DNA from: Scenedesmus sp. PABB004
Lineage: Eukaryota
Direction: 5' to 3'
Length of the DNA stretch: 64,000 bases
NCBI GenBank assembly: GCA_014905635.1
Contig: JABVCE010000002.1
Location: 1,736,001-1,800,000, forward strand
Below are positions 42,901 through 49,100 of this stretch, piece by piece. How positions within the stretch are numbered: position 1 is the stretch's first letter; each line of letters begins with the position of its first letter. Position numbers and translations under genes: made by a program. The notes beneath the pieces are model-generated. The model was given only the letters and a program-made list of their open reading frames with translations. It was not told the origin of the DNA and ran no database searches.

Positions 42901-43083
42901 CCGCGCCGCGCGCCGGCGGCCGGGCCTGGGCGGCAGCTGCTGGGACAGCTCCCAAGCTCCCGCCCCACCTGCTACCCGCCGCGCCCGCCTCCTGGGGGCC
43001 GCGCCAGGCTGGTGGCTCTGGCACGCCCCTGCTGCTCCGTCGCGCCCCGCGCGCGCGCCGGCGCGCGGCCGCGCGTGCAGCAT
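39912..43083 (-). CDS. Cytochrome P450 (CYP85-clan/CYP120-like), probably plastid-targeted
   Basis: I-helix LLLAGHDTS, ETLR, AFNPDR, heme loop PFGVGPRYCVG. Exon 1 splices to give ...RRVAVRAELATD. Confidence 0.9.
40622..40795. repeat. Intronic (GGCG)n low-complexity tract
   Basis: About 170 bp of almost pure G/C with repeating ggcg units inside a P450 intron. Confidence 0.85.
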
Positions 43084-43337
43084 GGTGGCGATGAACCGTG
43101 CGTGTGTGCGACCGGCTGGGGCTGCTGCGGCGCCTGTGTGCGGCTGACCGACGGCACACGCGAGTGCCTCGTAAAGGTCGCGTGTGGGCTGCCGGGCGAC
43201 GCCGGGGGGCCGCGAGGCGACTGGGACGCACGGGACTGAGTGAAACTGCGGCCCGCAGGCGGCGGAGGGCGTGCGCGCAGCGCGGCGGCGGGCCGGGTTT
43301 TTTGCCGTGCGACGCAGCGCCGCCCCGCTCAGCGGCC

Positions 43338-44813
43338 TCAGCGCCCGGCGGCGAGGTTGAGGAGCATGTTGTTCCCGCTGGGCAGGTAGACCACGTTCTG
43401 GCTCTTGGACATGGTCTCCGCGATGTCCTTGGCCGCCTCGATGCGGCGCAGCTCGACGAGCCCCGCGCCCGCCGCCTTGGTCGCGTCGCTGATGAGCTTC
43501 GCGGCCTCGCTCTCGCCCTCCGCGCGGATGATGGCGGCGTTGCGCTCCTGCGCGGCGCCGGGGCGCCGGCGCGGCGCGCGCGCGGGGGTTCGGCGCCGGC
43601 GCGCGCCCCCGGCCGCCCGCCGCTCGCGCCCGCCCGCCGGCGCCGGCGCCGCCGCGTCGCCGCGTCACCTGCTCCGCCTTGAGCACCACGAAGCGCGCGC
43701 GCTCGGCGTCCTGCTCCGCGACCTGCTTCGACTCGACGGCCTTTGTGAACTCGGTGCCAAAGGAGAGGTGCGTGATGGCAATGTCCTCGAGCACGATGCC
43801 AAAGTCGGCCGCGCGCACGAGCAGGCTGTCGCGGATGGCCGACGACACCTGCACGGGCGCCGGCGGCGTGGGCGCGCGGGCGCGGCCGCCGCGGGCGCCG
43901 CAGCGAGCGCGCACAACGCAACGCACCTTCTCGCGCTGCGTGAGCAGCTGCTCCGCGTTGTACTGCGCGACCACGGCCTTGACGACCTCGTTGCCAATCG
44001 ACGGCAGCACGCGCTCCTCCCAGTCCATGCCCAGCCCCTGGCGGCGCGGCGCGCGGCGCGCGGGCTCGGGGCGCCGCCCGCCGAGTGCGGGCGCGCGGCC
44101 CGCGCGGCGCGCGGGGCGCGCGGGGCGCGCGGGGCACGCGGCGCGAGCAGGCGGCGCGGCAGATTGAGCAGGCGGCGGCGCACCTTGAAGATGTTGGTCA
44201 GCTTCTCCTCCGCGGGCTTGGACAGGAAGCGGAGGCTCATGTTGACCATCTGCAGGTCTGCGCCGCGCCGGACGCGCGGCGGCCACGCGTTGCGGCCGGC
44301 CGCGCGGCGGCGCGCGCGGCGGCCCGCGCCGCCGCGCGCACGACCGCGCAGGCGCGCGGCGCGCCAGCGCCGCTGCAGGTGCCGCCGCACCCTTTGTGCC
44401 GGTGACGGAGGAGATGCTGCGCGGGCGCGTGCGGATGTCCATGATGTGCGGCGTCTGCACCCACGGCACGCGCAGGTGCGTGCCCTCGCCCACCACCTCG
44501 GGCAGGATGCCGCGGAAGCGGTCGAAGATCACCGCGCGCTCGCCGCCGTCGACTGCGCGCGCAGCCGGGGCGCGCGGCGGCGCGTCGGGCGCGGCGGCAG
44601 CAGCGGCGCCGGCGGCTGCGCGCGCCGCGCCGCGCCGCGCCGCGCCGCGCGGCCGCCGCGGCGCCGCCGGCGCGGTCGGGGTGCGGGGCGCGGGGCCTCA
44701 CCGTTGTAGAGCGACGTCTGCAGCGCGCTGGCGCCCACGCCCAGGCCCACGGCGTACTTCATCACCTTGTTGAGCGCGCTGATGACCGCGGCAGCCTGCG
44801 GGGAGGCCGCCAT
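43338..44813 (-). CDS. PHB1: Prohibitin (PHB1/PHB3 type), 5 introns
   Basis: [85 protein letters not shown]. Confidence 0.96.
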
Positions 44814-45197
44814 GGCGTCACCGAGGGCCGGACGCTCGCTGCGCCTGCGCTCGCGCTCGGGTGTCGACGGCCGGCTGGCGTGTGCGGCGTGGAGACGATC
44901 GCTCGTGCTCGCGGCGCGTGGTGGCGCGGAGGCGGCGGGCGTGCGCGCGTGCGTGCGTCAGCGTGTCGACGGCGGGCCGGTGCGGGTGCGCATTGGCGCC
45001 GCGCGGGGCCCAAGCGGCGAGCGAGGTTTGGGGCTGCTCGGCGCGCGCCCCGATCGCAGCGTGCGGCCCTGGCGCCCACAGCACTCGCTCCGCCCCCGCC
45101 CCGCAGCACTAACCCGCGCGCCAGCGTCCGCGCCGCGCCTCGCCGCCGCCGCCGCCCCGCCTCCGCCGCCGCCGCTGCCAGCGCCCCCGGCGCCGCG

Positions 45198-45541
45198 ATG
45201 CAGCAGGGAGGCAAGGTCGCCATCGCGGTGTCGGTCACGTTCGTGGCGGGCGTGGTGACCGGCTGGCTGCTGAACACGTACACGCGCAAGGTGCGGCGCG
45301 CCGGGCGAGCAGCGCCCGCCCCGCTGCTGGTGCCGGCGGCGGCGGCGCGGCGCGCGCGGCGTGGCGCGGCAGCCCCCTAGGAGACCATGGCCCGCGCGTG
45401 CGGCTGCCGTCGGCGCGCGCCGCGGCGCCCGCCGCGCGCCGCCCGGCGCCGCGCGCCGACGCCCCTCGCCCGCCTGCAACGCGCGCGCAGGGGCTTGAGA
45501 AGTTTTTGGGCAACATGCAGAGCAAGGTCAAGAGTATGTGA
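45198..45541 (+). CDS. 47-aa single-transmembrane microprotein, mitoregulin-like (exons 45198-45290 and 45491-45541)
   Basis: Canonical AAG|GTGCGG...GCGCAG|GGG intron gives MQQGGKVAIAVSVTFVAGVVTGWLLNTYTRKGLEKFLGNMQSKVKSM*. Exons are lower in GC than the intron. TGTAA at 45982. Confidence 0.75.
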
Positions 45542-45981
45542 GGGGGAGGGGTGGTGGGGAGCAGCGACTGCAGCAGCAGGAGTCCGCGCCGCCGCCGCAC
45601 GCCGCCTGCATGGCCGCAGAGTCGCGCGCCGCATCAGGCGGCCCGCCGCCGCCGCGCGCCGCGCGCATTGCGCGCGGCCGCGGCGCACGGGCGCGGGCGG
45701 GGGCCGGGGAGGCTCGCAGGCAGGGCCGGCCGGGGGGAGGGGGGGCCGCGCCGCGGGGGCGGCCGCTGGCGGCGAGCTCGAGCTTGAGCGAGGGCGTGTC
45801 GGTTTGGGGTTTGCGCAGCTTGTGCGTGAGCGTTGTGTTGTTGCTGTGCGCTGTGCACGCGTGATCTGCCTGGCACGGCATCTGTGAGGGGCGCTCGGGG
45901 AGCGGGCAGGAGGCCTAGGGACGGGGGGCGCGGGCGAGCGCAGCCGCTGCCCGAGCGCGCCGGCGGGCTGCAGCTGCGGTG

Positions 45982-46010
45982 TGTAAGCCCATTTCGTCTG
46001 GCCTCTTACA
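45982..46010. terminator. Convergent pair of green-algal poly(A) signals (TGTAA on + at 45982, TTACA at 46006)
   Basis: Located between the convergent microprotein and MurE-like genes. Further signals at 9230, 21246, 23025, 27755 and 61739 each lie downstream of a correctly oriented gene. Confidence 0.65.
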
Positions 46011-46148
46011 CGCCGCCGCCACGGCGCCCCCCGCGCCCGCGCTGGCGGCCGCCGGCCGCCCGCCCGCCGCGGCGGTCCGGGCCCGGCGCGCGCCCCCCGC
46101 GCCGCGGGACTCGCGCCTCGAGGCTCGAGGCCCGCGCCGCGGCGCGCG

Positions 46149-49100
46149 TCACTCGATCTCGACCACCACGCTGCGCGCCTCGTCGGGCGGCGGGCCCCAG
46201 GGCAGCGCGGAGCGGTCGAGGGCGACAAGGGAATAGAGGTACTCCAGCTTGCTCAGCGCGTTGCGCGCCTCGACGCGGTCGTCCAGCCAGCCGCGCGCGA
46301 CGCTCGTCTCGCCGTCCCAGTGCTCGACAAAGTCGGTCGCGCCGCGCCCCGCGAGCAGCACGGCGTCGCCCGGCGTCGCGGTGCCGATCGCGGCGCGGAT
46401 GGCCTGGAAGCGGTCCTCCATGATGTGGCGCTGCCAGCGGCGCTGCGCGGAGTGGAGGAAGGGCTCGAACCAGAGCGGCGCGCGCGTCTGGTCCTGGAAC
46501 ACGCTGTACACATACGCCGCGTACGGCTCAAACAGCTCGTTGGGCCACCCCGACACGACGTCCTGGGCGCGGCGCGGCGCGCGGCGGCGGGCGGCGCGGT
46601 GCGGCGCGTCGGCGGCGCGGCACGGGAGGGCCGGCGGGGGGCGGCGCGCGCGCGCGAGGGCCGGCGGGGGGGGGGGGGGGGGGGGCGGCGCGCGCGGCGC
46701 GCCTGGATGATGGCAGCGGGGTCCTCGAGGCGCGGGCTGCCGTTTGTGACGATGACGCACTCCGCCCGCTGGTGCGCGACCTCGCCCATGCGCGCGCGCG
46801 TCTCGCCGGAGCTCGTCTGCAGGCGGTCAGGGCGGCGGCGGCGGTCGGCGCAGCGGCGCGCGGGGTGCAGCGCGCGGGGTGCAGCGCGCGTGGGTGCAGC
46901 GCGCAGGGTGCAGCGCGCGGCGGGGCGCGGCGCGGCGGCGCATGCCTGGCCGTCGCAGGAGAGGACGCAGAAGACGCGCTTCGCCCCCGCCTCGCGCAGC
47001 GTCTCCAGCACCGCCGCGAGGCGGCTCGGCGTGTTGGCCGCGTCCACGACGACCGCAAAGTCGGCCGGCAGCGGCGCCGCCGGCGGCGCCTCGCCCTCGG
47101 GCAGCTCCAGCGCCTGGTTCACGACCTCGCACCGCCCCGGCACGACCTGCGCGCCGCGGTGTCACACGGCCGCCGCGTGACGGCGGTCCCCGGCCGGCGC
47201 CCGCGCGCCGCGCCGCCGCGCCGCCGCCGGCTGTCTGCGCACCTGGACCGACTCTATGCCCGCGCCGATGTCGGCGAGCGGGAGGTTGAGCAGCACGCCG
47301 ACCGCGACGGCGGCGAGGATGTTGGACGCGTTGTGCCGGCCGACGAGGTTGCTGATGATCTCCAGCCGACCCAGCGGCGTCGCCACAATCATCTGCCGCG
47401 CCCAGCGCGCAGCGCAGTGCGGTCAGGCACGCGGCGCGCGGGCGCGGCGCGGGCGAAGAAGCGGTGCGGCGCGCGGGCGCTGGCCCTGCAGTGCCGCGCG
47501 CCCGGCGGCGGCGCGCACGCGCGCGGCGCGCACCGTCGTCTGCCAGAGCGAGAGCTCGAGGCTCTCCGCGTGCACGTTGGCGTCGGTGTTTGTGAGGCTG
47601 TACGTCACGCCCGGCACCGCGGACGCCGCCTCGGCGACCGCGCGCGCCGCGTCGTCGTCCAGGTTGATCACGCAGCGCTGCCGCGCGGCGTCGGTCAGGC
47701 GCGCAAAGAGCGGCAGCTGCGCGTCCAGGCACGCCTGCGCGCACGTTGCCGGCACGGGCGCGGGTCAGGCCCAGTGCCGGCGGCGGCGGCGGCGGCGACG
47801 GCTGCGCGGCGCGCGCCCGAGCGCGCGCCCGGGGCTGCGCGGCCGCCGCCGGCGCGCCTGCATGGAGCCGAACAGCTCCAGCTGCTGCGGGTCCTCCCCC
47901 AGGTTGGTGAACACCGCGATGCTCGGCTGCAGCCAGTCGGCCGCGCCGCCGACGACCGCGTCTGCCGTCACCTCGACCACCGCCGCCGTCGCGCCGCGGT
48001 CGCGCATGCCGCCCAGCAGCTTCTGCGCGGCGGCGGCGCGGCGGGGCGGGCTCGCGTGCGCGCGGGCGGGCGGGCGGCAGCCGGCGGCACCGCGGGCCGC
48101 CGCGCCTGCAGCTGCAGCCCCGGCGGCGTGGTCTCCTCGACGCAGTAGCGCCCCCGGTATGGCACGAGCGCAAAGGGGCTCGCGCACTCGCGCCCCGCCG
48201 CGGGGTCGGTCTCGCTCGGCCGCCAGAGCTGCCCGTCCGGCGTCAGCAGGTGCTCCGCGAGCGCGTGCTCAATGCTGCCGACCATGCCTGCCGCGGCGGC
48301 GGCGGCGGCGGCGTGCGCGCCGCGCGGGTGAGCGCGCTGCCGGGCCACCGCGCCGCCGGCGTGCGGCGCTGCGGCGGGGCCGGGGCGCCGCCGGCGGGCG
48401 CCGCGCCGCGCACCCGTGAGCTGGCCCGCCTGCTCCAGCACGCCGCGGATGAGCCACGCAACCGTGGTCTTGCCGCTCGTGCCGGCGACAGCGATGGTGT
48501 TGAGTGCGCTGCTCGGGTGGTCTGCGGCGGCGCGCGGGAGCGGGAGCAGGCAGGCGGGTCGGGGCGGCCCCTCGGCGCCCCCGCGCGCCGCTCCCCGCCG
48601 TGCCGGGCTCGGGCTCCCCGCCGTGCAGCGCCGGCGCACCGAAGAACGTGGCGGCCAGGCGGCCGGCGAGCTCGTCGACGTCGTCCGCGCGCACGACCGG
48701 CACGTGCGGCGGCACCTCGAGCGGCAGCTCCAGCCCCGCGGGCGCGAGCACCGCGATCGCGCCGTTGGCGAGCGCGAGCTCCAGCTCCTCCTCGTCGCCG
48801 CCGTGCGTGGTGCCCAGCCCGACCAGGCGCTCGACGCAGGCGTACACGTCGCCCGGCAGCAGGCTCGCCGCGTCGCTGCTGATGCCGGTGGCAAAGACGT
48901 CCCCAAACTCTGCGCGTCGCGGGCGCGGCGTGGGCGCGAGCGCGGGCCCGCGTGGCCACCGCCGCTGCGGGCGCGTGCAGGCGTCGGCGCGGCGCGCACC
49001 CTCCTCCAGCAGCTGCGCGGCGTCGATCTCGCCGGCGAGGCCGAAGAGGTCCGAGAGGTACATGCAGCGCTCCTCAGGCTCCGGGAACGGCGGCGGCTCC

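Follow-up and report, generated by a model that had tools for sequence, protein, structure and literature searches.

Mitoregulin (Pfam PF22002, MTLN) is a microprotein of ~56 residues with a single N-terminal transmembrane helix and a positively charged C-terminal tail, as described in passages of two reports (PMC11920140, PMC6091870). According to passages of the first report, it is a conserved protein of vertebrates that invertebrates are generally held to lack, and its placement in the inner versus the outer mitochondrial membrane is disputed (PMC11920140). In W25V data given in part of a further report, Trp25 is required for its self-association (PMC11732159). A second point of comparison is provided by the signal-anchored proteins of organelles. 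In the section of PMC4010795 drawn on here, more than 89% of these proteins fall below 0.4 on the Wimley-White scale, whereas more than 85% of the ER ones lie above it, and the organelle signal anchors also need a flank of at least three basic residues behind the helix. Plant OEP7 is a signal-anchored protein of the outer envelope; according to excerpts of PMC3355566 and PMC4010795, its function is unknown and its targeting depends on basic residues that follow the helix. Third, bacteria have the LapA/YciS-type domain (LapA_dom, DUF1049, PF06305), a two-helix domain found in larger inner-membrane proteins. Here, we describe a spliced algal gene whose 47-residue product has features in common with all three. 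The single-pass architecture of an organelle-type microprotein is known already; what is new is a conserved, essentially unannotated algal family.

The gene lies in green-alga-type nuclear DNA of very high GC content. The window, that is, the whole stretch of 64,000 nucleotides analyzed here, is 79% GC, and its exons stand out as GC dips (0.53 to 0.72) between introns of 0.83 to 0.98. The microprotein gene follows this pattern, with 0.68 to 0.72 in exon 1, 0.53 in exon 2, and 0.83 to 0.95 in the intron, and the prohibitin gene next to it shows the same exon/intron contrast. A preliminary description made from the letters of the DNA had proposed a spliced two-exon ORF of 47 codons at this site, and its exons, GT..AG borders, and translation were all verified (Table 1). 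The donor reads CGCAAG/GTGCGG at 45290/45291, and the acceptor reads ...GCGCAG/GGGCTT at 45490/45491. Translation would start at the first ATG in frame, the nearest in-frame upstream stop being 252 codons away. When left unspliced, the frame (45198..45380) gives only a 60-residue ORF, and the gene is indeed invisible in a list of unspliced ORFs, as had been stated. The TGTAA that had been reported downstream was also found; this sequence is the poly(A) signal of green algae, and the copy near the end of the putative 3′ UTR is the sole one on the + strand between 45542 and 46200. The pattern GW[LVI][LVI]N, searched in six frames, had one match in the window, which was the 47-residue gene itself, and no Rfam family matched across 44700-46200.

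Table 1. Features of the microprotein locus and its neighbors (positions are those of the window)
Feature	Position	Strand	Remarks
Prohibitin, first coding exon	44702..44813	-	ORF 44529..44813; 3′ boundary at GTGAG donor approximate
Region between divergent start codons, 384 bp	44814..45197	.	Must contain both 5′ UTRs and any shared promoter
Microprotein exon 1, coding, 31 residues	45198..45290	+	N-terminus, transmembrane helix with G18xxxG22-W23-L-L-N26, R30 K31 (P0001)
Intron, 200 nt, GT..AG, phase 0	45291..45490	+	Same position as intron of metagenome locus L001
Microprotein exon 2, coding, 16 residues and TGA	45491..45541	+	Basic amphipathic helix; aligns with uninterrupted relatives end to end
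Putative 3′ UTR	45542..45986	+	Ends near TGTAA at 45982-45986
Convergent Mur-ligase-like gene, 3′ end	46006..46421	-	Last coding exon 46149-46421

Comparison with other sequences showed that the two-exon locus is a genuine nuclear protein-coding gene. First, the unspliced ORF was used as query in a word-indexed search, and 7 of the 41 candidate proteins are 84 to 89% identical to it over exon 1. All 7 diverge right past Lys31, which is the predicted donor position, and 24 of the 31 columns are invariant when exon 1 is aligned with them. Second, a locus with the same structure was found in a metagenome scan, where it was the only one confirmed among 136 pattern matches. This locus, L001, comes from a relative of lower GC content. 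Conservation in related algae and dN/dS had been named beforehand as checks on the gene, and both came out in its favor: L001 has the same exon 1, a 16-codon exon 2, and a stop at the same codon, its 92-nt intron, bordered by GC..AG, interrupts the frame exactly where that of the window does, and dN/dS between the two genes is 0.13 over the gene and 0.11 over exon 1. The coding sequences are 73% identical, with 11, 5, and 22 differences at the first, second, and third codon positions, respectively, counted over both exons. Amino acid identity is 33/47 in frame compared to 19/46 and 18/46 out of frame. By these substitution patterns, the microprotein gene is shown to be evolving under purifying selection. 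The two loci are orthologous, because in both the microprotein gene is followed, tail-to-tail, by the same C-terminal exon of a Mur-ligase-like gene (1091-1180 on the - strand of L001). The L001 contig stops 176 nt upstream of the ATG, which places the prohibitin side outside it. Third, exon 2 was recognized independently of the window by a family HMM made from 17 full-length relatives (alignment A3), none of them from the window. The spliced product scored 92.4 bits, compared to 65.8 bits for exon 1 alone and 64.1 bits for the unspliced ORF. When exon 2 was shuffled (n = 200), the score was 68.6 ± 2.2 bits with a maximum of 77.2 bits. This means that exon 2 contributes ~26 bits, at a z of ~10 against the shuffles.

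The relatives form a family that has been almost entirely without annotation. An exon-1 profile, run exhaustively with HMMER against 1.84 billion representatives, gave 32 matches at E ≤ 1e-3, 19 of them at E ≤ 1e-10; one of the 32, the 1,167-residue repeat protein P0024, was set aside unread, and no match in this search bears an organism name. Family alignments used as queries in word-indexed searches recovered 49 relatives among 339 candidates in one case and 57 among 1,031 in another. Several of the relatives are uninterrupted ORFs of 47 residues. Three of these (P0037, P0038, and P0048) are encoded on DNA contigs of 10.6 to 39.8 kb, so intronless orthologues exist. In five others (P0023, P0047, P0049, P0050, and P0031), an in-frame read-through insert occupies the intron position and is followed again by exon-2 sequence. 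A good example of how the two forms may be connected is P0051, an uninterrupted 47-residue protein whose first 31 residues are identical to those of four read-through genomic proteins (P0009, P0059, P0060, and P0062). The simplest reading of these identities is that P0051 represents a spliced transcript from a close relative. Proteins this small are overlooked by gene finders, above all when an intron splits them, and the relatives found here are largely miscalled read-through ORFs. A record of the family gives annotators a conserved 47-residue membrane protein to look for.

Only one relative carries an organism name, the hypothetical protein Rsub_04110 of Raphidocelis subcapitata (GBF91370.1; P0039), and it is the single annotated protein of the family. 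It is a true member, and its last 47 residues align with the family end to end. However, it is annotated at 105 residues. Its start was probably called too early, because the N-terminal extension is conserved in no relative. The annotation assigns no function, and a literature search for its identifiers found no mention of them. The family was traced only to chlorophyte-type sequences, a range that can be suggested rather than read directly from names, the relatives being mostly unnamed metagenome proteins. Scans elsewhere gave little. None of 10 pattern matches in viral contigs was confirmed, and the one confirmed among 37 in contigs of prokaryote genomes is a bacterial ORF of 79 residues whose tail is unrelated. 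A profile search of PDB chains returned only Salmonella PrgH (E 0.011 to 0.03), a chance helix match.

Some features of the protein were apparent throughout the family. AlphaFold2, run with the family alignment, predicted one helix over residues 3-46 with a mean pLDDT of 86.6. A six-residue N-terminus leads into a weakly hydrophobic transmembrane segment rich in Ala, Val, Thr, and Gly that ends in G-x3-G-W-L-L-N. Eight positions (F15, G18, G22, W23, L24, L25, N26, and L33) are invariant across the full-length alignment, K6 and R30 are nearly so in the family alignment, and all 23 full-length members have GxxxG immediately before the Trp. The tail in the window has 5 K/R and 1 D/E. Its hydrophobic moment is 0.42, compared to 0.22 ± 0.11 in shuffled tails, of which a fraction of 0.044 reach 0.42. 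The hydrophobic helix and basic amphipathic tail noted in the preliminary description were thus both recovered, as one predicted helix and as a moment above that of the shuffles. All 23 members have a net-positive tail, with a charge of +2 to +5. The mean Wimley-White value of the transmembrane segment is 0.22 to 0.29 in the window, ranges from -0.06 to 0.34 across the family, and is below 0.4 in 23 of 23 members; these values depend on the scale values used, and the scale variant behind the rule in PMC4010795 may differ. With this hydrophobicity below 0.4 and no cleavable presequence, the protein resembles the organelle signal-anchor class. As regards the basic flank, the window has R30, K31, and K35, and its subclade has at least three basic residues close behind the helix. 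Over the family as a whole, only 3 of 23 members have at least three basic residues within 12 residues behind the helix.

The explanation that we favor, and that we hold to be somewhat probable, is that this is a chlorophyte family of N-terminally anchored microproteins in which an invariant GxxxGWLLN motif is followed by a basic helical tail, and that its likeness to mitoregulin is a case of convergence. The protein would insert into the membrane as an N-terminal signal anchor, with no signal cleaved off. Its short N-terminus would cross the membrane, and the basic tail would stay behind on the cytosolic side (or that of the matrix or stroma). The weak hydrophobicity of the transmembrane segment would favor mitochondria or chloroplasts over the ER, and residence in an organelle membrane is probable on these features of the predicted protein. 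The GxxxG-Trp face may pack against other helices, those of its own copies or of a partner, and the basic tail may rest on acidic lipids. By analogy, the mode of action is probably like that of mitoregulin-type microproteins. An invariant GxxxGWLLN on a single helix also makes the family a tractable case for the question of how algae distribute such tiny anchors among mitochondria, chloroplast, and ER.

Three known families were weighed as possible relatives. The algal protein might be the chlorophyte counterpart of plant OEP7 (OEP14, E6.7), the signal anchor of the chloroplast outer envelope, and this we consider unlikely. OEP7 has 64 residues in Arabidopsis and an acidic C-terminal extension and is therefore longer than the algal protein, as compared by description. 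Its layout is otherwise, we presume, much like that of the algal protein, in that a short N-terminus leads into a helix that closes with G-W-L, followed by a basic tail with an L-D-K-F-like stretch. The weakly hydrophobic algal helix suits the signal-anchored class, and a relative within the plant lineage would be phylogenetically more natural than a vertebrate one. Like the members of this class as they are described in parts of PMC4010795 and PMC3355566, the protein is small, would have no cleaved signal, and carries a moderately hydrophobic N-terminal anchor, with a basic flank in the window's subclade. However, no protein with a plant name was among the matches of the family searches, and only the window's subclade retains the F in L-[DE]-K-F. 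A search of the literature on OEP7 with Chlamydomonas or green-algal orthologs found no statement on an algal OEP7. Other small mitochondrial proteins, including STMP1/DUF4535 and ATP-synthase subunit e, were absent from every Pfam list and were dropped.

Descent from a bacterial LapA/YciS-type domain, of which the second helix and the tail would remain, is rather more doubtful; on such a reading, an endosymbiont might have been the donor of a domain later reduced to one helix. Both proteins have a helix ending in a sequence like G-x3-G-W-L-L-N followed by a basic stretch. Among the 30 relatives scanned against Pfam, LapA_dom was listed for 29, at 10 to 23.5 bits, and was the best family for 8. 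These 8, in which it beats MTLN, include the divergent P0071 to P0073, where LapA_dom is strongest; the maximum is 23.5 bits (P0071), compared to 15.7 bits for exon 1 of the window, and the E value reaches 5e-5. Two relatives fell outside the MTLN/LapA_dom pattern: P0028 had DUF2076 as its best family, and P0076 had no match at all. The IMG pipeline labels 5 relatives "YciS (DUF1049 family)." Further, the bacterial protein P0077, a true LapA_dom protein at 36.3 bits, has a near-identical GWLLNSY stretch, and hhalign of alignment A3 against P0077 gave a probability of 94% over 23 columns. This last value is heavily selected, since P0077 was picked by shared words from 5.8 billion proteins, and the corresponding E value is 5.5 database-wide. 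Moreover, the LapA_dom cut-off is 28 bits, and none of the relatives reaches it. Two helices make up the bacterial domain (profile positions 1-64), and P0077 spans positions 1-47 with two hydrophobic stretches, whereas the algal protein has one helix and covers the second half only, with residues 7-46 typically aligned on profile positions 19-58.

That the family is a true, very distant homologue of mitoregulin is more doubtful still, and we regard it as highly unlikely. If it were so, the family would predate the plant-animal split and would have been lost, or have diverged beyond recognition, almost everywhere else. The likeness that the preliminary description had seen was borne out to the extent that MTLN is the top Pfam family for exon 1 of the window (21.6 bits, E 2e-4; 20.1 bits for the unspliced 60-residue form). 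It fell short in that the PF22002 gathering cut-off is 27 bits and LapA_dom is nearly equal. MTLN is also the top family for the L001 product, at 22.9 bits. The family-profile search that had been suggested as a check gave a similarly divided answer: MTLN was listed for 26 of the 30 relatives and ranked first in 20, but only 2 passed the cut-off (P0017 at 27.5 bits and P0048 at 28.9 bits), leaving 28 below it. Five relatives are marked PF22002 in the precomputed Pfam column of the database. The MTLN alignments are ungapped and offset by two residues, for example, residues 7-45 on profile positions 9-47 or 6-31 on 8-33. By these reported ranges, the invariant W23 would fall on profile position 25, and from the profile length of 56 this position would correspond to Trp25 of mitoregulin. 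A match no better than that of random single-transmembrane peptides had been named as the result that would count against the likeness. Two natural decoys with the same GxxTGWLL core (P0064 and a bacterial ORF at 3759-3995 of contig L002) had no MTLN match, nor was there one for any of seven bacterial proteins from L002, which include three multi-pass membrane proteins, so the match is no generic artifact of a transmembrane helix.

However, several observations speak against common descent. First, the full-length relatives nearest to the window, P0051 (23.7 bits) and P0069 (18.0 bits), align to MTLN over residues 6-31 only, which means that the exon-2 tail adds nothing to the match in the window's subclade. 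Second, the MTLN signal fades in the divergent members (11.2 bits for P0071, 15.6 bits for P0073, and none for P0072 and P0076), whereas LapA_dom persists there. Third, at least one of the two likenesses, to MTLN or to LapA_dom, must be non-homologous, and the noise floor is therefore only a few bits away from the MTLN scores; with LapA_dom reaching an E value of 5e-5, it lies ~1 to 6 bits from them. Such a near-threshold match beside a near-equal one to an unrelated bacterial domain is a caution against reading ancestry in single-helix proteins. Finally, a protein language-model atlas contained no mitoregulin cluster for the family; its top scores, 0.86 and 0.84, stayed under the lead level of 0.9, and its named neighbors were the bacterial DUF3042, DUF2613, and YtxH clusters. 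No sequence bridging to mitoregulin was found among the 1.84 billion representatives or in the word-indexed searches, the reports, in the passages cited, confine mitoregulin to vertebrates (PMC11920140), and the passages covered of the literature on mitoregulin and plants name no plant or algal homologue. An older mitochondrial microprotein family had been proposed on the strength of the likeness. Of that proposal, the algal microprotein family is real, but, with no bridging sequences, its shared ancestry with mitoregulin is not demonstrated by the profile matches, and we do not present the family as a demonstrated mitoregulin.

The two proteins are alike in several respects. Both are small (47 compared to 56 residues), with a single N-terminal helix that has Gly-x3-Gly-Trp near its end and is followed by a positively charged helical tail. 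They differ in that the algal scores are mostly 18 to 24 bits against a cut-off of 27 and the tail of the window's subclade stays unaligned. The algal family, moreover, occurs only in chlorophyte-type sequences, whereas mitoregulin, in the same passages, occurs in vertebrates only (PMC11920140). Mitochondrial location, cardiolipin binding, and oligomerization are features of mitoregulin, whereas the algal family is known here from sequence alone. Convergence on a common small-protein architecture is rated more likely than descent from mitoregulin. A broader view also strikes us as highly improbable. In it, both proteins would be what survives of an ancient organelle microprotein of eukaryotes that oligomerizes through its GxxxG-Trp helix, and the pairing with prohibitin would reflect a joint part in organizing mitochondrial membranes. 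The idea that there is no gene here, the ORF and its splice sites having arisen by chance in GC-rich DNA, can be dismissed almost entirely: open frames do run long at 79% GC, as the distant upstream stop illustrates, but the exons, intron position, and stop are conserved across many relatives, the substitutions are frame specific with a dN/dS of 0.13, and intronless 47-residue orthologues exist.

The neighboring genes were also identified. The preliminary description had placed the microprotein start 385 bp from the ATG of a prohibitin gene on the opposite strand. The distance is exact, the prohibitin ATG being at 44813 (-), head-to-head with the microprotein ATG, and the identity of the gene was confirmed through its downstream exons, which match Pfam Band_7 at 33.6 bits and prohibitin chains of the PDB at E 1e-32. 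Co-promotion of the two genes had been suggested, but the pairing is adjacency in a compact genome, nothing more. The word "prohibitin" does not occur in the text of PMC11920140 (term count 0), and the literature passages covered hold no link between mitoregulin and prohibitin. On the other side, an upstream exon of the convergent Mur-ligase-like gene matches Pfam Mur_ligase_M with 21 bits, where the cut-off is 24. This gene has a TGTAA of its own (TTACA on the + strand) at 46006-46010, twenty bases past the TGTAA of the microprotein gene.

The helix end of the algal microprotein carries a stretch, G-x3-G-W-L-L-N-S, that is found nearly identically at the helix end of the bacterial protein P0077 and of the product of L002:3759-3998, an open reading frame on a bacterial contig. 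Both are unrelated small bacterial membrane proteins; P0077 scores 36.3 bits against LapA_dom and is a genuine member of that family. Because unrelated proteins carry nearly the same residues, their sequences suggest that this is a recurrent helix-end motif, possibly a convergent one. The sole named family member, P0039 (Raphidocelis subcapitata Rsub_04110), is annotated at 105 residues, of which 58 form an Ala/Pro-rich N-terminal extension. Since this extension is common to no relative, the start codon of P0039 was probably annotated too far upstream.

The Mur-ligase-like gene on the 3′ side has one exon that matches Pfam Mur_ligase_M at 21 bits, under the cut-off of 24. In L001, the orthologous locus on a metagenome contig from a less GC-rich relative, its last exon is kept in tail-to-tail orientation downstream of the microprotein gene. 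The C-terminus that this exon encodes may resemble that of plant MurE. In the window, the microprotein gene and this convergent neighbor have their putative poly(A) signals only about 20 bases apart (45982-46010), and therefore their inferred 3′ UTRs would nearly meet. The microprotein intron is 200 nt with a GT..AG border in the window, compared to 92 nt and GC..AG in L001.

Features neighboring or orthologous to the microprotein gene
Feature	Position	Strand	Detail
Mur-ligase-like gene	window 46149-47392	-	one exon matches Mur_ligase_M
Mur-ligase-like gene, last exon	L001:1091-1180	-	
Orthologous microprotein intron	L001:270-361		GC..AG border, AAG|GCACGT
Putative poly(A) signal, microprotein gene	window 45982	+	TGTAA
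Putative poly(A) signal, convergent gene	window 46006	-	TTACA (TGTAA on - strand)

Across window positions 43000-47500, the prohibitin and microprotein exons can be recognized by their GC dips alone (0.53-0.75, compared to up to 0.90-0.98 in introns; 60-nt windows). A stretch of simple repeats of the CGCCG/GCGCC type lies within the first prohibitin intron (window 44560-44690; GC up to 0.98).
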